Position numbers and translations under genes: made by a program. Source: a virus. From it: DNA of 64,000 bases. The stretch's first letter is position 1. Every line of letters starts with the position of its first letter. This document shows positions 3,563-62,359 of this stretch, piece by piece. The stretch is from IMG/VR virus record IMGVR_UViG_3300027849_000009; one strand, written 5' to 3'. The notes below the pieces were generated by a model. That model had not been told where the DNA came from and searched no databases. It was given only the letters and a program-made list of their open reading frames with translations.

Positions 3563-4525
3563 ATGAGTCATGAATTAGAGATTGTAAACGGTAAAGCACA
3601 AATGGCATATGCAGGACAAGTTCCTTGGCATGGTCTCGGTACTAAAGTATCTACAGATTTGTCTCCGAGAGAGATGATGGTCGAAGCGGGATTGGATTGG
3701 GGTGTGGAGAAACACTCTGCATTGATCAACGTGCGTGGTGAGTTAATTGAGACGGGTCAGGAAGCACTTATCCGTACAGATACCAATGCTGTACTAACTA
3801 ACGTAGGTAAGAACTGGAATCCTGTTCAGAATAGCGAAGCATTCGATTTCTTTGCTGAGTACTGCGCCGCTGGCGATATGGAGATGCACACAGCGGGTTC
3901 ACTAAAGGATGGGCAAATCACTTGGGTTCTTGCTAAAGTAAATGAGTCATTCGATATCCTTGGTGATGATCAAGTAGATTCGTTCTTGTTACTATCTAAC
4001 CCACATCAGTATGGCAAAGCAATCAATGTTCGCTTCACTCCTATTCGTGTAGTATGTAACAACACCTTGACCTTCTCACTTAGTGCGAACTCAAACAATC
4101 AAGTAACTATGAATCACCGTTCTAAGTTTAATCCTGATGAAGTTAAAGCACATATGGGAATTGCTCACGACAAGTTTGCTCAGTATAAAGAGATGGCGAA
4201 TTACTTAGGACACAAGCAAGCATCATTCGGTGATTTGATTAACTACTTTAACAACGTGTTCCCAGTTGCTAATGCTGCCGCTCGTGAAGCGAAATCATAC
4301 AGTGATTTGTCTCGTACTGCTAAGATAGCGATGGATCAACTTGACACACAACCGGGTGCTGAGTACGGACGCGGATCATGGTGGCAAGCACTTAATGCAG
4401 TGACTTACACAACCGATCACTTGTTGGGTCGCTCTGCTGATACTCGTATGGCGTCTGCATGGTTCGGATCTAATCAAGCGAAGAAAGTCAAAGCAGTAAA
4501 CCTCGCAGTTGAGATGGCATCGTAA
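3563..4525 (+). CDS. DUF932 / TIGR03299-like phage-plasmid protein
   Basis: PWHGLG, VQNSEAF, AGSL.DG and TPIRVVCNNTL motifs. Confidence 0.85.
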   Translation: MSHELEIVNGKAQMAYAGQVPWHGLGTKVSTDLSPREMMVEAGLDWGVEKHSALINVRGELIETGQEALIRTDTNAVLTNVGKNWNPVQNSEAFDFFAEYCAAGDMEMHTAGSLKDGQITWVLAKVNESFDILGDDQVDSFLLLSNPHQYGKAINVRFTPIRVVCNNTLTFSLSANSNNQVTMNHRSKFNPDEVKAHMGIAHDKFAQYKEMANYLGHKQASFGDLINYFNNVFPVANAAAREAKSYSDLSRTAKIAMDQLDTQPGAEYGRGSWWQALNAVTYTTDHLLGRSADTRMASAWFGSNQAKKVKAVNLAVEMAS

Positions 4526-4549
4526 TTAACGCCTGAAAAACGTCTTTAG

Positions 4550-4557
4550 TATAAATA
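4550..4557 (+). promoter_or_regulatory. T4-type late promoter
   Basis: TATAAATA within an RBS-occluding inverted repeat (4539-4587). Confidence 0.8.
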
Positions 4558-4592
4558 TTATAATGATATTCATGTACTAAAGGCGTTGTTTT

Positions 4593-5066
4593 ATGATCGA
4601 TCCTATATCTGCTGTGGCAGTTGCAACATCCGCATACAAAACAATAACTGCAATGCTTTCTGCTGGACGTGAAGTTGAAGATACTCTCGGTCAGTTAGGA
4701 AAATGGTACGGCGCTATCGCTGACTTCAATGAAGCAAAGCGACAAGCAGAAAATCCCCCTCTATTCAAGAAACTATTCTATTCCTCAAGTATTGAACAAG
4801 AGGCGATGAATATGTTCATTCAAGAACGAAAAATCAAAGCACAAGAAAAAGACCTCCGAGAACTATTGACCTTCTGTTTTCCTGGTGACGCATACAAAGA
4901 ATTGACGGATATGCGTAGAAAAATAAGGGATCAGCGAGAGAAAACCCAGTACAAGCAAATTCGCCAGAGACAAGCATTTGTTGCCAATGCAATCAACTGT
5001 ATACTGATTGTTGTTTTAAGTGCTTTTACGTATGGTATATTTTCAATGATTATAAATAACATATAG
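4593..5066 (+). CDS. Membrane-anchored coiled-coil protein
   Basis: Helical body with a C-terminal TM segment. Confidence 0.75.
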   Translation: MIDPISAVAVATSAYKTITAMLSAGREVEDTLGQLGKWYGAIADFNEAKRQAENPPLFKKLFYSSSIEQEAMNMFIQERKIKAQEKDLRELLTFCFPGDAYKELTDMRRKIRDQREKTQYKQIRQRQAFVANAINCILIVVLSAFTYGIFSMIINNI

Positions 5067-5113
5067 ATAAGATAAGATAAACAATTGAATTAAATGAATG
5101 AAAGGTGGAATAA

Positions 5114-5674
5114 ATGAAACATATAATTTGTGTGATGTTAATGGGAATGCTATGCACCATAGCGAATGCACAAGATGCTCCCATTGATGATACTATCAGA
5201 ACAGACTCAGTAACAAACAGTACGGTTGATTCAACATCGAGATCAACTACCACGCTGAACTCTCCTCCTGCTTCTGCAATAACTCCGACTATCAATACGT
5301 CAAACTCTGACTTATGTACGTTCGGTGTTGCGGGTGCAATTCAAACACAGATTCTAGGTATCTCTACTGGCACTCAGGTGACAGATGATAACTGTGAACG
5401 CCTGAAACTTTCGAAGACTCTGTATGATATGGGTATGAAAGTGGCAGCGGTTTCGACGATGTGTCAAGACGAACGAGTATTCAACGCTATGATGATGGCA
5501 GGCACTCCGTGTCCCTACGATGGTATGATTGGATCAGAAGCAAAGGCAGCATGGGAAGTTAATGCTGAAGAGAAACCAGATGCTAAAAAAGAAGAGGAGG
5601 GACTGACTGATGGTACTAAGACATTATTGGGCGGCGCTGGCGTTGCTAGTTTGCTCTTGTTACTCCTACTCTAA
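5114..5674 (+). CDS. Secreted protein with Cys-flanked beta-hairpin and C-terminal hydrophobic anchor
   Basis: Sec signal ending ANA; S/T-rich stretch; C...C hairpin; ends GGAGVASLLLLLL. Confidence 0.75.
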   Translation: MKHIICVMLMGMLCTIANAQDAPIDDTIRTDSVTNSTVDSTSRSTTTLNSPPASAITPTINTSNSDLCTFGVAGAIQTQILGISTGTQVTDDNCERLKLSKTLYDMGMKVAAVSTMCQDERVFNAMMMAGTPCPYDGMIGSEAKAAWEVNAEEKPDAKKEEEGLTDGTKTLLGGAGVASLLLLLLL

Positions 5675-6500
5675 CGATACAGTTTATGGTTCTACGTCGA
5701 ATGCGGCAGCAAATGGTTACAGATGGGTCATGACAAATGTTCTACCTCAACAGTTAGGATTGACTGTTGGTAATGTCATCTATCAATACACTACAGTTAA
5801 GAATACTGATGACGATATGGTTGTCAGTGTACAGAATGAGAATGCGCGAGGCGAAGGTTATATCTTTAGATCAGTAGATGATTGGTCAGGAATACCGGGC
5901 AATAGTATAAATAAAGTCGTTCCTGCAGGCAACATAGACATATCATACTGGGGGAATGGTTCGATAGATTGGACAGGCACTGGTTCTGTTACAGATGCGA
6001 AAGTGATATACACGTATCAGTACGACCCATGTTTTGATCCGCAGACTGATCCCGCTTGCCCAGGATGGATAGCGCCAGTTAATTACAGTATCGAAGACGC
6101 CGAAGCATACGATGCTTTATCTGAAGACTATGTTCAGAATGAACTGGATCGAAAGCAGACTCTCCAAGATGAAGAAGAGGAAGAAGAAGCGGAACGCAAG
6201 GCAAACATTCTAAGAAAGAAAAGAGAGAATGACGAACGACTAGAAGTAATGTTGGGATATGTGAATACATCCCTATTATCTGACGGTCAACTAATTCAGC
6301 ATGAGATGCTAAAGGCGACAAACAATCTGTCGGGTGCGTATTATGCAACTATATCAGGTGGTAATTATCCAGAGACTATTAAGTTGATTGATAAGAAACT
6401 GCCGGATAGTAAGAGTGGTGTCAGAACCAATCTTGCGCAACAAGTGCTACACCAACAGATGGTCGACTCACAATATAATAATAATAACGGAGAACAATAA
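5610..6500 (+). CDS. Secreted protein (beta domain, acidic linker, helical C-terminus)
   Basis: Signal peptide; CFDPQTDPACPG; poly-Glu run. Confidence 0.75.
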   Translation: MVLRHYWAALALLVCSCYSYSNDTVYGSTSNAAANGYRWVMTNVLPQQLGLTVGNVIYQYTTVKNTDDDMVVSVQNENARGEGYIFRSVDDWSGIPGNSINKVVPAGNIDISYWGNGSIDWTGTGSVTDAKVIYTYQYDPCFDPQTDPACPGWIAPVNYSIEDAEAYDALSEDYVQNELDRKQTLQDEEEEEEAERKANILRKKRENDERLEVMLGYVNTSLLSDGQLIQHEMLKATNNLSGAYYATISGGNYPETIKLIDKKLPDSKSGVRTNLAQQVLHQQMVDSQYNNNNGEQ

Positions 6501-6994
6501 TGTTCAAAAAATTAATGTTATCGGTAGCAATTCTGAGTGGCAGTGCAATTGCCCAAGAAGTGCCTATTACTGGCAACGTAGAATCAAAATGTATAGTACA
6601 AACTGATACACTCGGAGTATATGGTAACCCGACTCCTAGTCAACTAACTACATCATCTAATAGTGGCGGAGTAACTCCTATTATTCGTTTCGATGTGATT
6701 CAAGCAAGTTTTTATAAAGCACGAATCACTACACCGAGCGGATTCTCAGAAAGTCCTGCGCTAGATGATGTTGTAACATGGACGGGTGATGTTGCTGTAG
6801 GCGAAGTTTCCGATGCTACTATGTCATCTTATAGCACCAGCAAAGTCGAGTACGATAACACAACTGAAATAGATTTGACAGTTGCGGGCAGTACTTGGTT
6901 TAATATTACATCAACAGCAGACTACGGATATGACACAGCACTTCCTGCTGGCACTTATCGTGCTGTTGTAAGCGCGGAATGTATCGCTCTGTAA
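6500..6994 (+). CDS. Fimbrial/pilin-like secreted subunit
   Basis: Signal ending AIA; N-terminal ITGNVESKC and C-terminal LPAGTYRAVVS, as in chaperone-usher pilins. Confidence 0.55.
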   Translation: MFKKLMLSVAILSGSAIAQEVPITGNVESKCIVQTDTLGVYGNPTPSQLTTSSNSGGVTPIIRFDVIQASFYKARITTPSGFSESPALDDVVTWTGDVAVGEVSDATMSSYSTSKVEYDNTTEIDLTVAGSTWFNITSTADYGYDTALPAGTYRAVVSAECIAL

Positions 6995-7368
6995 TGCGTT
7001 TTTTTGTAATGCTATTATTGATGACTTTAAGCACCTATGTAATAGGTCATCAATGGACTCCAACTTATCCTACGTTGAAGAACTCTTATGTATCTGGGGT
7101 TCTTTCAACTAGGATGGAGTTGTTCAATGCTAGAAAAGAGGTGTTGTATTATCAGATTGGTGTATTTGATACCGACTTCAAAGCAGTGCCATTTGCTACC
7201 TCAGAAAAGATAATAAAGATTGAACACCTTGACCGAAGGACTGTTGACATTTTTATTAGAAATAGAGATAAAAGTAAAGCAGTATATATTTGTTCTAAGT
7301 CTAAGTTGTTAGCAAAGGGATCGGCAACAACCTCTATATCTTCAAGGATATGTTCTAAAATTAAATGA
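6994..7368 (+). CDS. Fimbrial chaperone-like periplasmic Ig-fold protein
   Basis: Signal peptide, early TP motif, alternating beta strands, two C-terminal Cys; adjacent to the pilin-like gene. Confidence 0.45.
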   Translation: MRFFVMLLLMTLSTYVIGHQWTPTYPTLKNSYVSGVLSTRMELFNARKEVLYYQIGVFDTDFKAVPFATSEKIIKIEHLDRRTVDIFIRNRDKSKAVYICSKSKLLAKGSATTSISSRICSKIK

Positions 7369-7378
7369 GTAAATTGTA

Positions 7379-7807
7379 GTGAGAAAGATTTTTATAATAT
7401 TGATGTTAGTAAGTACCGGAGCAATAGGTGAATCTAGTTCTTTGAATCTTGCTATACCTCAATCACAACAGAGTTACCAGTCAGACAGAATACGTGCAGG
7501 GAATATCGAATGTTCTAATGCTATCGGTTCTGCAACTAATGTTGAGTTTGGTGTTGTTGGAATCATTGGAGAGAATGATCCCTACGGTTATAATAATAAC
7601 TCTGGCGCCAGTATGAACACAGGTAGCAATAACGGTATGGTCAAAGATGTCGGTGTGTATGCTAAGATAACGATACCAATCGGTGGACCAAAAGAAAGAA
7701 TAAACTGTAATACTTTGTATCAACTAGAACTAGAAAAGACTCGCTTAGAAGTTCGCAAACTGAAAGCAGAAATACAGAGTATGAAGCAACTAGAATTTGA
7801 TAACTAA
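7379..7807 (+). CDS. Secreted protein with amphipathic beta-hairpin and C-terminal coiled coil
   Basis: Signal peptide; strands NVEFGVVGI and DVGVYAKITIPIG flanked by two Cys. Confidence 0.7.
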   Translation: MRKIFIILMLVSTGAIGESSSLNLAIPQSQQSYQSDRIRAGNIECSNAIGSATNVEFGVVGIIGENDPYGYNNNSGASMNTGSNNGMVKDVGVYAKITIPIGGPKERINCNTLYQLELEKTRLEVRKLKAEIQSMKQLEFDN

Positions 7808-7821
7808 AGGATCAATGTAAC

Positions 7822-8280
7822 ATGGCAGAAGTAGAGTTTGGTGGAGTAACTTTTAGTGGCGGTAAGATGTTTGTCTTACTCTCTGCACTTTCTACTTTGG
7901 GCGGTGCTACATGGGCAGGTTTCGAGTTCTATTCCGACTACATGGATATGAAAGAGATTGTCCAGAACATCGACACTACCGAGATAGCAAACCGAAATGC
8001 TCAGATCGAGATTAAACTTGACGAAGCAATCGACTATTCACGTAGTATCAAGAACGACCTTCGTGATGACTTCAATCGTATGGAAGGTAATGTTGACCGT
8101 ATCGAAGATAAGAATCGTGATATGGAAGATAAAGTAAAGACGATGATTGATCGCGCCAGCGAGAGATTTGACTCAAAGAGAGATAGTCTTCAGAACGATA
8201 CCGAGATTAAAATCAACTCTCTTGAAGATCGAATGAATAAGAAGATACAAACTGTTTTAGATAATCCTCTGGCAGATTAA
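7822..8280 (+). CDS. Membrane-anchored coiled-coil protein
   Basis: N-terminal TM helix followed by long heptad region. Confidence 0.75.
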   Translation: MAEVEFGGVTFSGGKMFVLLSALSTLGGATWAGFEFYSDYMDMKEIVQNIDTTEIANRNAQIEIKLDEAIDYSRSIKNDLRDDFNRMEGNVDRIEDKNRDMEDKVKTMIDRASERFDSKRDSLQNDTEIKINSLEDRMNKKIQTVLDNPLAD

Positions 8281-8284
8281 AGTA

Positions 8285-8572
8285 ATGCAAGTAACAGATA
8301 GAGCAAGAGAGAAACTCCAAAACTTCTTAGAACAACGGAGTAAAGGTTGCGGTGTGTTCGTAACAGTTAAAACAACTGGATGCTCTGGGTATGCATATCA
8401 TTTAGAATTTGCAAATGACCAAGATAGTCTTATCGAAGTAGACCCCAAATACAAGTATATGTTCGAAGGAGTCATTCTTGATTATGTCAAGCAGGGTCTT
8501 AATGAAGGATTCGAATTTGACAATCCTAACGAAAAACACAAATGCGGTTGTGGTGAATCTTTTACCGTATAA
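8285..8572 (+). CDS. iscA: A-type Fe-S carrier protein (IscA/HesB)
   Basis: TTGCSGYAY and C-terminal CGCGESF motifs. Confidence 0.92.
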   Translation: MQVTDRAREKLQNFLEQRSKGCGVFVTVKTTGCSGYAYHLEFANDQDSLIEVDPKYKYMFEGVILDYVKQGLNEGFEFDNPNEKHKCGCGESFTV

Positions 8573-8581
8573 AAATAACAC

Positions 8582-8610
8582 TTGACATTCCTTATAAATC
8601 CTAGTATAAT
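8582..8610 (+). promoter_or_regulatory. sigma70-type promoter
   Basis: TTGACA-17-TATAAT. Confidence 0.75.
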
Positions 8611-8728
8611 GCACTTAACGCTTTTATGAATACTAAATATTATCTTTTCAACAAATATCGCAAATACCAATTCTATCTTGAGAGAAAGGGTAATACTATA
8701 GATGTATATGTTTAGTACTATAAATCCT

Positions 8729-8795
8729 ATGAATGATGACTATTCATGAGATAAATGGTAATTAGGTTGACGATGTTGTGATATCATGATATAAT
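8729..8795 (+). promoter_or_regulatory. Early promoter cassette with palindromic motif A
   Basis: ATGAAT-N7-ATTCAT (8729-8747), 19 nt gap, TTGACG-17-TATAAT. Confidence 0.8.
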
Positions 8796-8823
8796 AACAC
8801 TATATTAACCAATTGAGAAAATT

Positions 8824-8997
8824 ATGAATTTATATGATATGAACGATACAAACTTTGATAACTACCAAAACTACATTATGGACAATGCTGATCTTTCTGA
8901 GGTCACCATCTGTAACGGAGACACACTCTTGGAGGCAGCAGAAAATTCGTACCTCCTAGAAGAGTTCATGCAATCACCCCAATACATTGTGGAATAA
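8824..8997 (+). CDS. Small highly acidic early protein (57 aa)
   Basis: MNLYDMNDTNFD...QYIVE*; 12 D/E and no K/R; first ORF after an early promoter. Confidence 0.7.
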   Translation: MNLYDMNDTNFDNYQNYIMDNADLSEVTICNGDTLLEAAENSYLLEEFMQSPQYIVE

Positions 8998-9008
8998 CCT
9001 TTGAGTAA

Positions 9009-9372: not shown

Positions 9373-9439
9373 ATGAATAGTGAGTATTCATGAGATAAAT
9401 GCTAATTAGGTTGACTATGTTGTCATTTCATGAGATAAT
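9373..9439 (+). promoter_or_regulatory. Early promoter cassette with motif A
   Basis: ATGAATAGTGAGTATTCAT, 19 nt gap, TTGACT-17-GATAAT. Confidence 0.8.
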
Positions 9440-27352: not shown

Positions 27353-29341
27353 ATGCCAGTAAAAATTGATAAGAAGCGTGATGCACTATTAAAAGATTAC
27401 GCAGTAGGTATGTTGAAAGACTTCTACTTAAATGATAATGAAAATTCTCCGCAAGAAGCATTCGCTAGAGCATCAACAGCATGGTCAAGATACGAAGGAC
27501 AATTGGACGAAGCATTAGCACAACGACTCTATGATTTTGTTTCGAAGAAGTGGTTTATGTTTGCTAGTCCTGTACTATCTAATGCGCCTACTGATAAGAA
27601 GAAAGATAAAGGGATGCCTATCTCATGCTTTCTAACTTATGTTCCAGATACATTAGAAGGACTAATTGGTCACTCATCTGAGTTAAGATGGTTGTCAGTC
27701 TATGGTGGTGGAGTTGGTGGTCATTGGAGTGATGTACGTACAGTATCAGATGTAGCACCTGGTCCTATGCCATTCTTACATACTGTCGATGCTGACATGA
27801 TTGCATATAAACAAGGCAAGACTCGCAAGGGTTCTTATGCCGCATATATGGATGTAAGTCACCCTGACATTATAGAGTTTTTGAACATGCGTGTGCCTAC
27901 GGGTGACGTACAGCGTAAAGCATTGAACTTGCATAATGCAATCAATATTACTGATGAGTTCATGGAAGCGGTTACTAAGAATCTTTTGTTCGATCTACGT
28001 GATCCGAAAGGACAAAAAGTTAAAGAATCAATCAATGCTCGTAAGTTATGGGAACGTATTCTTGAGACTCGATTCAGAACAGGCGAACCTTACTTAAACT
28101 TTATTGACACTGCTAACAGAGACTTACCTCAACCATTGAAAGACCTAGGTCTGAAGATTAATGGTTCGAATCTCTGTAATGAAATTCACTTACCCACATC
28201 GAAAGACCGAACTGCTGTATGTTGTTTGTCTTCATTAAATCTGGAATACTATGATGAATGGAAAGATACTACTATTGTTCGTGACCTTATTCGTATGCTT
28301 GATAACGTCTTGCAGTACTTCATTGACGAAGCACCCAACACAATTGAACGTGCAAAATATAGCGCCGCAAGAGAGAGATCGCTCGGACTTGGAGCGATGG
28401 GATTCCATAGTCTATTGCAACGACACGGTGTTGCATGGGAGTCACAGGCAGCGCGGGAAATTAACGATGCTGTGTTTAAACACATTAATACCCAAGCGAT
28501 TCTGGAGACTGAAGTCTTGGCACAAGAGAGAGGTGAATATCTCGATGGTCAGGGAAGTGGACGGAGAAATAGTCATCTCATGGCAGTGGCACCCAACGCT
28601 TCAAGTGGAGTAATACTAAGTACTAGTCCTTCGATTGAACCAAGTAAAGCAAACGCATACACACACCGTACTCGTGCTGGATCGTTTCTTGTTAAGAATC
28701 CATACTTGATTCAATTACTGATAGATAAGGGTGAAGATAACGAGTCTAACTGGACAAGTATCATCACCAACAAAGGTTCTGTTCAACACTTACCGTTTAT
28801 GACTGAAGGCGAGAAAGCAATCTTCAAGACTGCGCAAGAGTTAGATCAGAACTGGGTAGTTCAACACGCAGGTGAACGTCAGAAGTATATCTGCCAGGGT
28901 CAGAGTGTTAATCTATTCTTTCCAGCAGGTACTCCTAAGTCGTATGTAAACAAAGTACATATCAATGCATGGAAACTAGGACTGAAAGGACTGTACTATC
29001 TACGTACAGAAGCGAAGTCTCGTGCAGAGAATGTATCAGAGAAAGTAGAAAGAGTAGCACTAGAAGGTGATAAGCGAAACGTAGTATATTCTAAACCAGA
29101 TTGTCCATTCTGTCAATTGGCGAAAGAAGAAATGAGACTACGTGGTATTCCATATGATGAAGTTAATCTAACTGAGGTAGGTAAGACAGCGGCAGAAGTA
29201 ACTGGTCGTAAAGATGTTAAAACAGTTCCACAGATATATATTGGTGGAGAATATATTGGTGGGTATGAAGACCTTATGTCATACCTAGATAAAGAAGTTG
29301 AAAACGATGGCGATGACGAATGTCTCGCGTGTTCAGGATAA
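27353..29341 (+). CDS. nrdA: Ribonucleotide reductase class Ia alpha subunit with fused glutaredoxin
   Basis: SCF, GSNLCNEI, APNASS, GLYYLR; then CPFC...TVPQI Grx domain and terminal CLAC. Confidence 0.97.
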   Translation: MPVKIDKKRDALLKDYAVGMLKDFYLNDNENSPQEAFARASTAWSRYEGQLDEALAQRLYDFVSKKWFMFASPVLSNAPTDKKKDKGMPISCFLTYVPDTLEGLIGHSSELRWLSVYGGGVGGHWSDVRTVSDVAPGPMPFLHTVDADMIAYKQGKTRKGSYAAYMDVSHPDIIEFLNMRVPTGDVQRKALNLHNAINITDEFMEAVTKNLLFDLRDPKGQKVKESINARKLWERILETRFRTGEPYLNFIDTANRDLPQPLKDLGLKINGSNLCNEIHLPTSKDRTAVCCLSSLNLEYYDEWKDTTIVRDLIRMLDNVLQYFIDEAPNTIERAKYSAARERSLGLGAMGFHSLLQRHGVAWESQAAREINDAVFKHINTQAILETEVLAQERGEYLDGQGSGRRNSHLMAVAPNASSGVILSTSPSIEPSKANAYTHRTRAGSFLVKNPYLIQLLIDKGEDNESNWTSIITNKGSVQHLPFMTEGEKAIFKTAQELDQNWVVQHAGERQKYICQGQSVNLFFPAGTPKSYVNKVHINAWKLGLKGLYYLRTEAKSRAENVSEKVERVALEGDKRNVVYSKPDCPFCQLAKEEMRLRGIPYDEVNLTEVGKTAAEVTGRKDVKTVPQIYIGGEYIGGYEDLMSYLDKEVENDGDDECLACSG

Positions 29342-30499: not shown

Positions 30500-32143
30500 A
30501 TGAAACCCACTATAGCATTGTATGAGGGTCATGATACTAATCTAACAGTATATGACCCTAATACCGACTCGTTCTACATATATGAATTTGAACGTGTTTC
30601 AGGTATTAAACACCACAACATAAAAAATCGTACGGGTAGCAATGGTTTATCTACCAGCGCAAATGTTCAATATCTACATATTATTCTGAATCATCTTAAA
30701 GAAGTTCATGGCATTGAAAATGACTTTGGCACATTTATCTTCAAACCCATTTGGTGGAATATATCATACATTGACCGTAGTATTATCAATTCAGACAAAG
30801 AGATTTTACCAGTCATCGATCACCATGATGCTCATGCATGGTGTGCATATGGACAGGCACCTGAATCGTTCGAGAACACTGCTTGTATAACTTATGATGG
30901 TTGGGGCGAAAACACCGCATTCAAGTACTCGTGTTTCAAAGGCATCAATCGACATTCAGTTGAACCCATGTATTATAATTTCTCGATGGTCTACACTGCT
31001 ATGGCACACTCTCTCAAGATATTACATAATACTATGGATCTTGATCTCCCGGGTAAACTAATGGGATTATCTGCATACGGTGAAGTGAATCGCACGTGGT
31101 CAGATATAATGAAAGATTCTATCAAATCAGACTGGTGGAAATATAAACTAAACAAAGATACAGGATCTAAACCACCTGCCACCTGGAACGACTCACAAAA
31201 TCCATTACTTGTGATGAGAAAACAGATCAATCCGTGTATTCAGACAACTGATTATAACATAAAACTAGAGAACACTAAAGCATTCATGCTTGCTAGGTCT
31301 GCGCAGATTGCATTCGAAGAAGGTATCGTCGAAACTATTAAAGAAGAGTTCCTTGATAAGATTGAAGCGCACGATAACAATCTGATAATATCTGGTGGTA
31401 GTGCATTAAATGTTCTTGCTAACGAAGCAATCAAACGTGCATTTCCTGATGTCAACATATACATCCCACCAAACTGTCATGATGGCGGTCTAAGTTTTGG
31501 TATGTTATATGAACATCTAAAGACTACTAAGAAATACGATGTCACACAATCTGGTCCAAGAATATTTGATTACAAATATATGGATCCGATGATTAAACTA
31601 TACGGCGCAAAGAAGGTCAGTATTAATGATATTGCAGACTTACTTAAAGAGCAGAAGATAATAGGGATGGTGATTGGTAACATGGAAGTAGGACCGAGAG
31701 CATTAGGCAATCGTTCTATACTATGTGACGCATCTAACCCTAAGATGAAAGACACACTCAATTGTCGTGTTAAGTTCCGAGAGTGGTTTAGACCGTTCGC
31801 TCCTATATGCAGAAAGGAAGATGCACCTAAGTATTTCTACTCACCAAACTTTGATAACATGGAATGTATGCAATTCGTCGCGGATGTGTTGCCAGAGTAT
31901 CAAACTAAACTATTCTCTGTAACACACTACGACAATACTGCCAGACTGCAGGTGGTGACGGAGGAGAGCAATGCCGCAATCTATGACATACTGACAGCGT
32001 TCGATGGAGTACTAATAAACACTTCCTTGAATGTTCAAGGTAAACCTATTCTAAATACCTTTGATGAAGCATTTCATGTTTTACAAAAGACTGGTCTAGA
32101 CCATATAGTGGTAGAGTATGAAAATGATTATTGGTTATTCTAA
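30500..32143 (+). CDS. O-carbamoyltransferase (NodU/CmcH/TobZ family)
   Basis: GHD, HH.AHA, DG.G, GKLMGL, GG.ALN, GPRALGNRS, FRPFAP, NTS.N. Confidence 0.92.
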   Translation: MKPTIALYEGHDTNLTVYDPNTDSFYIYEFERVSGIKHHNIKNRTGSNGLSTSANVQYLHIILNHLKEVHGIENDFGTFIFKPIWWNISYIDRSIINSDKEILPVIDHHDAHAWCAYGQAPESFENTACITYDGWGENTAFKYSCFKGINRHSVEPMYYNFSMVYTAMAHSLKILHNTMDLDLPGKLMGLSAYGEVNRTWSDIMKDSIKSDWWKYKLNKDTGSKPPATWNDSQNPLLVMRKQINPCIQTTDYNIKLENTKAFMLARSAQIAFEEGIVETIKEEFLDKIEAHDNNLIISGGSALNVLANEAIKRAFPDVNIYIPPNCHDGGLSFGMLYEHLKTTKKYDVTQSGPRIFDYKYMDPMIKLYGAKKVSINDIADLLKEQKIIGMVIGNMEVGPRALGNRSILCDASNPKMKDTLNCRVKFREWFRPFAPICRKEDAPKYFYSPNFDNMECMQFVADVLPEYQTKLFSVTHYDNTARLQVVTEESNAAIYDILTAFDGVLINTSLNVQGKPILNTFDEAFHVLQKTGLDHIVVEYENDYWLF

Positions 32144-32615: not shown

Positions 32616-34364
32616 ATGAGGAATCTAATCGCCGCTAATTGGGGGCATGACGCCTCACTATGTTTCTGGAATGATGTTGCGAAAACATTTCATACTATTG
32701 AGATAGAAAAACTTGTAGGTATAAAACACTACAGAGGTCACGCACGTAAGGATGAAGAACTAGAGATTCTTAAAAGGTGTGCTAAGATAGCAGAAGAAGA
32801 GTTTGGCATACCCAACGACTATCACTGCATCATTCGTGGCAATCTATTGAACGATATCAAGAAAGAACAGATTGAAAATGGCACGGGTCGTTTGACAGAT
32901 AATAAAGTTTCTGATGATATGATGCTCGATGTTGATAACATTAATGCGGCATTTAATACTAAGAATATTGATATCACATATCGACATCATGAAGCACACG
33001 CATGGAATGGATTCGCTCCTTCGGGATTTGACAAAGCAGTCATACTTACTATGGATGGTGGTGGTAACGATGGGTTCACTCACTTGTTCACTGCTGAACA
33101 TCCTAATAAACCTCTGACAAGTCGTACACGAATACATGGAGTTCAAGCGCATGGCAGAAACTATACTCAGGCATGCCTATGGTCGTTATACAGTATAATG
33201 CAAAGCACCGACTGCTCGTTAGATGTTGCGGGTAAAGCAATGGGTGCATCGTCGTACGGAAACACTGAAAGCGATCCCTACTCGACTGCAACGAAACTGT
33301 TTTTGAGGACTAACTCCGCTTGGAAAAACTTTAGTCCTGGCAGAATGCTGTACGAGAAACATTACAATCAACCTCTGAAAGACGGTACTAACAGCAAGAT
33401 TAAGTTTATCGAAGCATTTAGTACTTCGCCCGAAGTGTACAATCCCTATAAACTATTTATTGATGAGATCGATTGGCAAACAGAATGTGATATGGCAAGA
33501 GGCATTCAAGATGCGTTTGTTAAAGATGCTATAAAATGGTTCAAAGAGATTATGAGTGTTAGGAACATAAACCTAGATGACTACGACAGAAATGTGGTGT
33601 TCTCTGGTGGTAGTGCGTTAAATGTACTGTTCAATGATATACTACAGCGAGAGATGAATATCAATCTATTCGTGCCGCCTAATCCAGCAGACCAAGGAAT
33701 TCCCTACGGTATGCTCGTGCAATGGATGGTCGATCATGCAACACAATACTCGCGTGAAGAAACTACGTACTCTGGTCAAAAGATACAAGACATGGAGGAC
33801 TTACAGAAATATTATCATTCACACAAAGGCAGAATGACAACTATTGCAGATGTAGCAAGCATACTGAAAGATGATAAGATTGTCGGACTCGTGCAAGGTG
33901 GCATGGAAGTAGGTGCGAGAGCATTAGGCAATCGTTCTATACTTGCTGATCCAAAGGGCGCAGATAAGAAAGACAAAGTTAATGTAGTAAAGAGACGCGA
34001 AGCATACCGTCCGTTCGCGCCAGTATGTAGATTAGAAGATGTAGAGACTTACTTTGACTCAGTTCGTTATGACAATCTATCTTATATGAATTTTGCGATA
34101 AAGACTCGTGAGGAACATATAGATAAGTTAAGAGCAGTTACTCATGTTGATGGGACAGCAAGAGTACAGACAGTTACTAAAGAACAGAATACAATACTAC
34201 ATGATTTATTAAGTGAATTTGATGGTGTATTATTGAACACTTCTTTCAATGTGAAAGGATCTCCAATACTAAATACACTTAAAGAAGCGTTCTATATGCT
34301 TGACGAAACCACACTCGATCATCTGGTAGTAGTAGATGAACATAACACAATATGGATTTTTTAA
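32616..34364 (+). CDS. O-carbamoyltransferase (NodU/CmcH/TobZ family), second paralog
   Basis: GHD, HHEAHA, DGGG, GKAMG, GARALGNRS, YRPFAP, HVDGTARVQ. Confidence 0.92.
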   Translation: MRNLIAANWGHDASLCFWNDVAKTFHTIEIEKLVGIKHYRGHARKDEELEILKRCAKIAEEEFGIPNDYHCIIRGNLLNDIKKEQIENGTGRLTDNKVSDDMMLDVDNINAAFNTKNIDITYRHHEAHAWNGFAPSGFDKAVILTMDGGGNDGFTHLFTAEHPNKPLTSRTRIHGVQAHGRNYTQACLWSLYSIMQSTDCSLDVAGKAMGASSYGNTESDPYSTATKLFLRTNSAWKNFSPGRMLYEKHYNQPLKDGTNSKIKFIEAFSTSPEVYNPYKLFIDEIDWQTECDMARGIQDAFVKDAIKWFKEIMSVRNINLDDYDRNVVFSGGSALNVLFNDILQREMNINLFVPPNPADQGIPYGMLVQWMVDHATQYSREETTYSGQKIQDMEDLQKYYHSHKGRMTTIADVASILKDDKIVGLVQGGMEVGARALGNRSILADPKGADKKDKVNVVKRREAYRPFAPVCRLEDVETYFDSVRYDNLSYMNFAIKTREEHIDKLRAVTHVDGTARVQTVTKEQNTILHDLLSEFDGVLLNTSFNVKGSPILNTLKEAFYMLDETTLDHLVVVDEHNTIWIF

Positions 34365-61051: not shown

Positions 61052-61082
61052 TATAAATAACCTCATAGAAACTCTATTTAGT
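61052..61082. promoter_or_regulatory. Overlapping divergent late promoters
   Basis: TATAAATA on + (61052-61059) and ACTAAATA on - (61075-61082). Confidence 0.7.
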
Positions 61083-61093
61083 AGGTAAATAAA

Positions 61094-62359
61094 ATGGCAA
61101 AAACATCACGTGGCGAACTAAAGCAACAACAGCGAAAAGCGCAAGAAAATTTCCGCGCTGAAATTGCTAAGTCTGAGAACAGACCTGATCCCACTACTAC
61201 GCAAGAGGCATATGAGAAAACTCAACCAGTTGCTCAAGTAAAGACCGAGGTTATTCATGAAGAAGTTATCACCGAAACTCTCGCAGAAAATCCTTCGCAG
61301 TTCGAAGAAAATAAGAAGCGTAATTTTAGATACCCTCTATCAATGCCCGCATCAGGAAAAGGTTATCCCGGAACTATTACATTTGAAGCACACATAGTTG
61401 AAGGTGTTGATCTTGCCAAAGAAATGTCTGGCATATATAATCGACTTACTAGAAAGAAGGAAGTGGTTGAAGATGAAAGCGAGGCAGATGAAGAAAACAA
61501 ACAGTCCATTATAGAGTCCAACAAAACAGCGAATAGCAAAAACAATGCAGAAGAAGCAGGACTACGGAACGACATCACTAAAGTGGCAAATTCAGTAAGC
61601 AAGACTTTTGAAAATGTTAATGCCCTCAATTCAGTCGGCAGTGTTATATTGCCACTGCAACGTGACTTACGATTCTCGGACAACGTATCATATGAAAGTC
61701 CTGCTATCGGTATGATGGGTGCTGGACTAGAAGGCGCGATAGGCGGTAAGAATCCATTTGATGGTGCTACTAACGGTGACGGTTCATTTACTACTGCCTC
61801 TTCAGCACTTGCCGCACAAGCAATTGCAAAAGCATCGGGTCTTGGAGTTGGCGCACTAATTGGTAAAATAGCAGGCGGTGCTTTAGGTGGTGCTGTACTT
61901 GGTTCTGGCGCTACAGAAGGACTAGGCGATGCTGTCAAGAGTGCTACACGAATTGCATCTGCTCCTAATCAAAGAACTCTATTCAAAGAAGTACAGATTC
62001 GACAGTTTGCTTTCACGTTTAAGTTGATCGCTAACAGTAGTCGTGAGGCAGAAGAGATTAAGAATATCATCAAATTCTTCAGACAGGAATTGTATCCTGA
62101 GATGTTGACTGTTGGTGATAACAAAGTTCCTATCGCATACAAGTTTCCTAATGTGTTTTCGATAAAGGTTAAGAATCAGTTTGGTGGCGATGCTGCCTCA
62201 AAGATACAAAGATGTTATTTACGAGATGTTCAGACATCATACAATGCTACCGGTAACGGTCTCCTAGAAGATGGTAATTTCATCGAAGTGGACATATCGT
62301 TATCGTTTCAAGAAGTTAAAGCACTTGATAAACAAATGGTTGCACTAGAGGATTATTAA
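61094..62359 (+). CDS. gp48: Baseplate tail-tube cap gp48
   Basis: RYP, PN...LF..V..R.F.F.FKL, E...I..II.FF, ..L.F.E. Confidence 0.85.
   Translation: MAKTSRGELKQQQRKAQENFRAEIAKSENRPDPTTTQEAYEKTQPVAQVKTEVIHEEVITETLAENPSQFEENKKRNFRYPLSMPASGKGYPGTITFEAHIVEGVDLAKEMSGIYNRLTRKKEVVEDESEADEENKQSIIESNKTANSKNNAEEAGLRNDITKVANSVSKTFENVNALNSVGSVILPLQRDLRFSDNVSYESPAIGMMGAGLEGAIGGKNPFDGATNGDGSFTTASSALAAQAIAKASGLGVGALIGKIAGGALGGAVLGSGATEGLGDAVKSATRIASAPNQRTLFKEVQIRQFAFTFKLIANSSREAEEIKNIIKFFRQELYPEMLTVGDNKVPIAYKFPNVFSIKVKNQFGGDAASKIQRCYLRDVQTSYNATGNGLLEDGNFIEVDISLSFQEVKALDKQMVALEDY

Follow-up and report, generated by a model that had tools for sequence, protein, structure and literature searches.

What might a phage do with a compact block of small genes whose products all appear to be directed to the cell envelope of its host? 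This question is raised by positions 4593 to 8280 of the IMG/VR virus record IMGVR_UViG_3300027849_000009, from which a stretch of 64,000 nt (the window) was analysed. A preliminary description had taken this block for an usher-less, fimbria-like secretion cluster of seven tightly packed, envelope-targeted genes. We found that the cassette is a real, abundant, and uncharacterised phage envelope module. With a little more confidence than doubt, we read it as an exported module, probably late-expressed, that is built around an usher-less pair of one chaperone-like and one subunit-like protein. Its site of action is probably the cell envelope of the infected Gram-negative host, at a late stage of the infection. 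Seven open reading frames (ORFs), g1 to g7, are flanked by a DUF932 gene (3563-4525) on one side and an IscA-like gene (8285-8572) on the other:

4593..5066, + strand: g1, 157 aa, with a helical charged N-terminal part and a C-terminal transmembrane segment at residues 127-157 (hydropathy heuristic)
5114..5674, + strand: g2, with a signal peptide and an anchor, phrog_20531 (alignment, hydropathy heuristic)
5610..6500, + strand: g3, an exported protein of 296 aa (alignment)
6500..6994, + strand: g4, an exported immunoglobulin-like (Ig-like) beta-sandwich, pilin/adhesin-like (AlphaFold2, Foldseek, VIA, Atlas, conservation)
6979..7368, + strand: g5, an exported single PapD-like domain of the major sperm protein (MSP) fold, chaperone-like (AlphaFold2, Foldseek, VIA, BFVD, alignment)
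7379..7807, + strand: g6, an exported protein with a GTG start, phrog_37374 (alignment, conservation)
7822..8280, + strand: g7, with an N-terminal transmembrane anchor and a long charged helical (coiled-coil-like) periplasmic part (hydropathy heuristic)

Neighbouring genes overlap or are separated by at most 15 nt throughout, except for 47 nt between g1 and g2, and the overlaps suggest coupled translation. Export signals and transmembrane segments were called using a hydropathy heuristic. By this measure, g2 to g6 have signal-like N-terminal h-regions with AxA-type sites, in agreement with the five Sec signals proposed before. In addition, the number of invariant Cys residues in each exported mature part is always even in the family alignments (four in g2 and two each in g3, g4, g5, and g6), which fits folding in the oxidising periplasm. 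Searches of Pfam, PHROGs, and NCBIfam with all seven proteins found no significant named family, and PDB sequence-profile searches with g3, g4, g5, and g6 gave chance matches only. There was no DNA match to the block among the GenBank phages. Furthermore, no paper on this module was found in the literature under the themes of phage spore coat protein U, exported/pilin-like/superinfection proteins, and DUF4402.

The IMG/VR scans with g3 and g4 yielded 66 loci, onto which all cassette proteins were then mapped by tblastn. We found that the order g2-g3-g4-g5-g6-g7 occurs in essentially every sufficiently long locus, in about 65 uncultured viral contigs with protein identities of 37-95%. The synteny that had been asked for is thus strongly conserved, and the cassette is far beyond chance. 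On the divergent contig L075, the order is g2-g3-g7-g4-g5-g6, and the full six-gene set is kept despite the rearrangement. However, only 10 of these 66 loci contained g1, which in some cases followed g6 or lay on the other strand. Therefore, the conserved unit consists of six genes, not seven, and g1 is a variable accessory. Of the first picture, all seven ORFs and their export or membrane calls by the heuristic stood, but the constancy of g1 did not. Likewise, two membrane-anchored coiled coils had been said to bracket the cluster; the C-terminal transmembrane segment of g1 and the N-terminal anchor and charged helix of g7 are there, but g1 is mobile or missing.

The families are also abundant. 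Profile searches of the public metagenomes in a 5.8-billion collection found at least 2,767 clusters (at 90% identity) for the family of g4 and at least 6,527 for that of g6; close relatives filled both result sets, and they inform on abundance alone. The relatives of g4 and g6 in the metagenomes lie on contigs of up to 197 kb, Tara samples included, and marine metagenomes from at least six studies contain near-identical DNA. The cassette is very common, yet no member bears a family name, and a cluster look-up also supplied none.

Cultured phages were matched as well in a tblastn search with the g6 of the window. With the Erwinia g6 homologue as query, we found 204 cultured phage records (180 Vibrio, 13 Klebsiella, 6 Serratia, 3 Erwinia, 1 Stenotrophomonas, and 1 Raoultella), and phrog_37374 is common to the window g6 and the g6-like proteins of cultured phages. 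In every cultured lineage inspected, the g6-like gene was adjoined by g5-like and g4-like ORFs with the same signal peptides and Cys patterns. The order of this trio is g4-g5-g6 in the Vibrio phages K478b, Ceto (T5-like Demerecviridae), and D79, and g5-g6-g4 in Erwinia phage pEp_SNUABM_01 (Vequintavirinae), Klebsiella phages Eowyn and FBKp24, and the jumbo Vibrio phage 2.275.O. It should be noted that hhalign supports the K478b proteins only (probability 60-65%, E ~1e-4). The comparison of the window g4 with the Erwinia g4-like ORF was not significant, and tblastn of g4 against the GenBank phages gave no match. The homology of the Erwinia trio rests on synteny, the Cys pattern, and the fold match of g5: a BFVD search with the g5 model retrieved the 116-aa Eowyn protein and the 111-aa Erwinia protein. 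The His that opens mature g5 is also found in its Erwinia, Eowyn, 2.275.O, and L075 versions. In the jumbo and Erwinia phages, the trio stands alone, with no g3, g2, or g7 beside it. Because the trio recurs, rearranged, in unrelated cultured phage lineages, g4, g5, and g6 are the deep core, and g2, g3, and g7 are additions of the marine clade. The trio is carried by phages in culture, with Vibrio harveyi, Klebsiella pneumoniae, and Erwinia as hosts, which makes ordinary genetics and biochemistry possible, and not only the study of an uncultured marine virus.

Within this core, g5 had been described (as 6994) as a one-domain periplasmic chaperone, and the model bears out a single PapD-like domain. 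The AlphaFold2 model from a 36-sequence alignment has a predicted local distance difference test score (pLDDT) of 91 and adopts the immunoglobulin-like fold of domain 1 of PapD-type chaperones. The top Foldseek matches in the PDB were MSP domains together with FimC, SfaE, FaeE, DraB, PapD, SafB, Caf1M, and CsuC (E 3e-4 to 2e-3, TMq 0.5-0.6), values that exceed the 7-8 stated as typical noise of the tool. Furthermore, the mature N-terminus of g5 coincides with the start of domain 1 in the chaperones and opens with an invariant His (H-x-F-T-P-T-Y-P), and Cys105 and Cys125 are invariant. The last strand of g5 has a conserved R/K at position 123 and K127; PapD-type chaperones have the conserved basic cleft residues Arg8 and Lys112 (PapD numbering) and bind the subunit with a G1 donor strand. 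By language-model features, the nearest neighbour was a 104-aa PapD_N cluster (0.84), which is a lead only. A copper "histidine brace" at the N-terminal His was also considered and was dropped, since a second invariant His is absent from the alignment.

Meanwhile, the model of g4 (pLDDT 88.7) is an Ig-like beta-sandwich, as had been proposed for the gene at 6500. The top ranks of the Foldseek search were the chaperone-usher proteins CfaB, the PapG pilin domain, FimG/Fim subunits, and CsuA/B, although the matches were weak (E ~1e-3, TM-score ~0.4). Among named families, DUF4402 came nearest in the ESM Atlas fold search (TM-score 0.57/0.54, 146 aligned residues), and the nearest cluster by language-model features, which are independent of the structure search, was spore coat protein U (SCPU; 0.94). 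SCPU itself (PF05229) was absent from the control genomes searched. The pilin-like motifs noticed before are present and conserved: in the family, G25, S29, K30, C31, P149, G151, Y153, and C161 are invariant. The first 11 mature residues form no strand in the model, and in this unstructured N-terminal extension the conserved V21, I23, G25 (invariant), V27, S29, and C31 (both invariant) alternate with variable positions. Such alternation is typical of a strand with a single packed face, like a donor strand. In addition, the g4 profile retrieved from 1.84 billion representatives only 110 small unannotated proteins, and hhalign of g4 against g3 aligned the signal peptides alone. The distant relatives of g4 lie on contigs that are too short for their gene neighbourhood to be read, L075 excepted.

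The timing of expression was read from two T4-type late-promoter motifs:

4550..4557, + strand: late-promoter motif TATAAATA, 36 nt upstream of the g1 start codon
5051..5058, + strand: second TATAAATA motif, 56 nt upstream of the g2 start codon

The window (GC content ~40%) belongs to the genome of a large, uncultured T4-type myovirus from the sea. Among its genes are one for a ribonucleotide reductase, two for Nol-like carbamoyltransferases, and, at 61094, one for a gp48-like baseplate protein. The same motif is found at 61052, just ahead of this baseplate-like gene. There are 8 copies in the whole window against about 5 expected, a count that by itself is not significant. In 16 of the 45 distinct related loci, an exact copy precedes the coding start of g2, mostly at a distance of 40-80 nt. 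Late expression of the cassette, which the preliminary description had also assumed, is therefore likely from these promoter motifs. Two metatranscriptome libraries, both of one study, gave contigs that cover the cassette; one of these contigs (2,132 nt) corresponds to 5112-7243. The positions 8382-8615 are uncovered, and contigs break near 4525-4582 and 5095-5112; as these are contigs of a single study, such gaps and breaks say nothing about transcript ends or the expression of the IscA-like gene. At 5065, at the g1 stop codon, contigs of three environmental runs (two RNA and one DNA) were without 5 nt that the window has, so that the C-terminus of g1 varies among otherwise near-identical strains.

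Are g4 and g5 then a chaperone and its subunit? From the models, a chaperone-subunit-like pair is plausible, and several results weigh against it. No sequence-level link to any chaperone-usher family was found, the Pfam, NCBIfam, and PDB profile searches being empty. For g4, there was no Pfam or NCBIfam match (PF00419, PF05229, and PF14352 included), its profile from 35 homologues matched no PDB sequence, and hhalign against the DUF4402 alignment gave a probability of 5%. In addition, the invariant Cys31 and Cys161 sit in the first and last modelled strands; if they form a disulfide, the sandwich may be self-complete and a donor strand may be unneeded. For g5, hhalign against a bacterial PapD_N protein gave a probability of 0.1%. 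The mature protein has about 106 aa in one domain, and not the L-shaped boomerang of two Ig-like domains (~200-250 aa; PF00345 and PF02753). Longer relatives of g5 were searched for and none was found, which is weak evidence. PapD_N (PF00345) was not matched by g5 at E up to 1, nor by the Vibrio and Erwinia homologues at E up to 5. Finally, with regard to late expression, the contigs of the RNA libraries do not prove transcription.

Among known systems, the archaic (Csu/SCPU, DUF4402) and class 5 (CFA/I) chaperone-usher pathways come nearest to the cassette in fold and in the pairing of genes. Both the archaic (sigma) Csu/SCPU system (CsuC, CsuA/B) and the alternate class 5 CFA/I system (CfaA, CfaB) possess an usher and a two-domain chaperone, whereas the cassette has no usher and only one chaperone-like domain. 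An usher has about 800 aa (PF00577) and is encoded together with chaperone and subunits. As had been noticed before, no usher-sized gene was seen in or beside the cassette, which is flanked by the DUF932 and IscA-like genes, nor in the related loci examined, and the block has no ORF of more than 300 aa. Unlike the chaperone-usher systems, the cassette is unmatched to PF00345, PF05229, PF14352, and PF00419, and its g4 carries the Cys pair in the first and last modelled strands. Furthermore, g6, g2, g3, and g7 are without counterpart there, and the cassette is carried by lytic phages behind a late-promoter motif. Because the usher, the two-domain chaperone, and the family profile matches are all absent, the cassette is not a member of the chaperone-usher pathways; at most, it works like part of such a system.

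A locus of an Alteromonadales metagenome-assembled genome (MAG), L101:7923-12127, offers another comparison. It contains a gene of DUF4402 (PF14352), the nearest named structural family to g4, followed by a gene for a 286-aa PapD_N protein and then by one for an 896-aa protein without an usher Pfam match. The place of DUF4402 beside the PapD_N gene implies that it behaves as a subunit of a chaperone-dependent system, and L101 may represent an uncharacterised fibre system of this kind. The likeness lies in a subunit gene that is followed by a PapD-fold gene. However, the phage block has neither a 286-aa chaperone nor the 896-aa protein, and the profile-profile probability is only that 5%.

If there is no usher, can g6 take its place? 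In g6, two amphipathic arms are highly conserved (0.56 and 0.59 bits) and are clamped by the invariant Cys45 and Cys110, whereas the tip loop between them varies greatly in both sequence and length (2.32 bits, 31% gaps). Beyond the clamped hairpin, the protein ends in a heptad-like helix. A coiled-coil stalk bearing a hairpin that is inserted in a membrane or exposed at the surface would fit this layout, though the layout is no proof of one. The same arrangement of Cys, hairpin, Cys, and helix had been reported for 7379 (g6) and 5114 (g2), and it is present in both; hhalign aligned their signal peptides alone, so the two proteins share the layout and have no detectable homology. With the outer-membrane channel families CsgG, secretin, and TolC-like proteins, g6 and g2 had no Pfam or NCBIfam match, and g6 had none in the PDB. 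The Erwinia g6 homologue gave a sub-threshold match to the OEP/TolC family of Pfam (E 0.0017).

From such features, a surface fibre could be drawn, in which g4 polymerises by donor strands with g5 as chaperone and g3 as tip adhesin, and an oligomeric barrel of g6 (and/or g2) replaces the usher. We regard this as improbable. The alternating hydrophobic/Gly pattern in the N-terminal extension of g4, the conserved amphipathic arms of g6, its hypervariable tip loop, as expected if the loop is exposed at the surface, and the weak OEP/TolC match all suit a fibre. However, no member matched a barrel, secretin, CsgG, or usher family, and a barrel made from two-strand hairpins would require at least 6-8 protomers. 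A joint barrel of g2 and g6 is opposed by their lack of homology, and the Cys31/Cys161 pair of g4, if it forms a disulfide, favours a closed fold. Furthermore, the jumbo and Erwinia phages carry the trio without an adjacent g3, g2, or g7. A more specific version earns no more credence from us: a PapD-like chaperone of half the usual size would bring a pilin-like subunit to a pore made of many g6 copies in the outer membrane, and a surface or trans-envelope fibre on the infected cell would result. If this is true, fibres would be made by a route not known before, one that is widespread among marine T4-like phages and extends to Vibrio, Klebsiella, and Erwinia phages.

The surroundings of the trio in the Vibrio phages bear on two further explanations. 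There, a large phrog_10818 protein precedes the trio, and a small lipoprotein gene follows it. The lipoprotein of 63-67 aa (lipobox ISGC, phrog_16916) is encoded by a gene that overlaps the 3' end of the g6-like gene, at L068:5284-5475 in K478b and at L110:3287-3490 in Ceto. Next to it in Ceto are the genes with holin and M15 endolysin annotations, and no canonical spanin pair is visible directly after these genes. These observations recall the Rz/Rz1 spanins, since g7 has the layout of an i-spanin, with an N-terminal transmembrane anchor and a periplasmic coiled coil. It is thus conceivable, though in our view unlikely, that the cassette is a lysis-linked device spanning the envelope, in which g7 pairs through coiled coils with g6 at the outer membrane and the other members modulate or brace the envelope until lysis. 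The layout of g7 and the setting in Ceto make this a rival to be taken seriously. The heptad-like helix at the end of g6 would suit such pairing, the late-promoter motif ahead of the block would suit the timing, and the Ceto trio with its overlapping 67-aa lipoprotein gene lies just upstream of the lysis genes; K478b has the overlapping gene too. However, no lipobox ORF (+ strand, at least 25 aa) was found at 4400-9000 of the window, and there is accordingly no o-spanin partner here. The g6 protein has a cleavable-type signal and a hairpin, unlike a spanin, and no lysis genes are annotated beside the trio in the jumbo and Erwinia phages. In addition, the pilin-like and chaperone-like members are foreign to spanins, which need neither.

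The phrog_10818 protein may be a long tail fibre, and the trio follows it in three Vibrio phage groups. Together with the late-promoter motif, this could suggest that the cassette proteins are components of the virion or of its assembly, e.g., tail-fibre accessory proteins. Such a role is very improbable: five proteins have cleavable signal-like N-termini and paired Cys residues, which points to periplasmic export, g2 and g7 have membrane anchors, and no member falls in a structural PHROG category.

It might also be asked whether the members assemble at all. They could be co-transcribed periplasmic or membrane effectors that act independently, such as several distinct proteins for superinfection exclusion or host takeover, with Ig-like folds as common scaffolds. 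Ig-like and PapD-like folds are widespread and thus not diagnostic. In many pelagiphages, the g2 domain is found by itself, either fused to other envelope proteins or next to them, and g1 and a gene for a Phage_OMP protein come and go around the block. However, g4, g5, and g6 strictly co-occur and adjoin across unrelated phage lineages despite rearrangement, the gene overlaps suggest coupled translation, and the six-gene set outlasts the reshuffling in L075. We therefore think it rather unlikely that the products are independent.

We return to the reading that we prefer, the usher-less module around g4 and g5. From the genes, their predicted export signals, synteny, the two modelled folds, the promoter motif, and the distribution, we infer binding, assembly, localisation, and role as follows. 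After Sec export, g5 would bind g4 by beta-strand complementation, as the chaperones of chaperone-usher systems do with their subunits. It would then pass g4 on to an assembly in the periplasm or close to the outer membrane, which oligomeric g6 would organise and which g2 (tail-anchored) and g7 (an N-anchored coiled coil), both anchored in the inner membrane, would tether. Because an usher is absent, the product would be an intra-envelope structure or a complex capping a receptor or machinery, and not a classical extruded pilus. The role that we favour is late control of the envelope, by superinfection exclusion, receptor masking, or lysis-linked remodelling.

Export to the envelope of the infected cell is also a feature of phage proteins for superinfection exclusion or receptor masking, such as T4 Imm and Sp, T5 Llp, and Cor. 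Their genes often lie close to those for tail or receptor-binding proteins, and they are single small proteins, expressed early or from prophages. The trio resembles them in its place near possible tail or receptor-binding genes in the Vibrio phages. However, the cassette is a multi-protein block behind a late-promoter motif, and its folds are unrelated to theirs. If the chaperone-subunit reading is true, phages took over the strand-complementation principle of pilus biogenesis and use it, free of an usher, inside the host envelope. It would also open an unexplored layer of phage-host or phage-phage interaction, with exclusion, receptor masking, or lysis control.

The accessory members differ in their spread. 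The g2 protein begins with a signal peptide, continues with a Thr/Ser-rich linker and a four-Cys domain (about residues 48-150) that is nearly invariant, and ends in a hydrophobic anchor, GG..LLLLLL. Its four-Cys domain is found, without the rest of the cassette, in Pelagibacter, Roseobacter, and Ralstonia phages. The domain lies under genes annotated 'OmpA family protein' or beside 'transport protein tonB' (Roseobacter phage CRP-810; MW202481.1), which hints that it may act in periplasm-spanning or peptidoglycan-associated contexts. A GlyGly-CTERM/rhombosortase reading of the g2 tail was rejected, as there is no basic tail and no NCBIfam match. When genome contigs were scanned with g2, the matches were only MAG contigs of many unrelated phyla, and no isolate genome carries g2. 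The labels of these MAGs include Melainabacteria, Aquiluna, Opitutales, Rhodobacteraceae, Bacteroides, Trichodesmium, Methanobacteriota, and others. Such contigs are most simply explained as mis-binned phage DNA and hence give no clue to the host.

The start of g3 overlaps the anchor-coding end of g2. In the g3 protein, a beta-rich N-terminal domain, in which Cys141 and Cys150 are invariant, is joined by a helical linker of acidic and basic character to a conserved C-terminal domain; the protein had no Pfam, PHROG, NCBIfam, or PDB match. The i-spanin-like g7 is conserved after g6 in most loci and lies between g3 and g4 in L075. A weak match to phrog_32327 was found for g1.

A small exported Phage_OMP protein (PF24653, a cyanophage outer-membrane-protein-like beta-barrel) is encoded near the cassette in about 10 related loci and was not found in this window by tblastn. 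Its position is variable, for example L019:9493-9831 and L021:8780-9103; the other loci are L018, L020, L022, L038, L039, L041, L049, and L053.

Elsewhere in the window, the large subunit of ribonucleotide reductase (27353-29341) bears a thioredoxin-like C-terminal extension, and the Nol-like carbamoyltransferase genes (phrog_1601) form a tandem pair at 30500-32143 and 32616-34364. Just past the IscA-like gene, there is a perfect sigma-70 consensus (TTGACA, 17 nt, TATAAT) at 8582-8610, which probably starts the next early unit, and more strong sigma-70 matches lie at 8767-8795 and 9411-9439.

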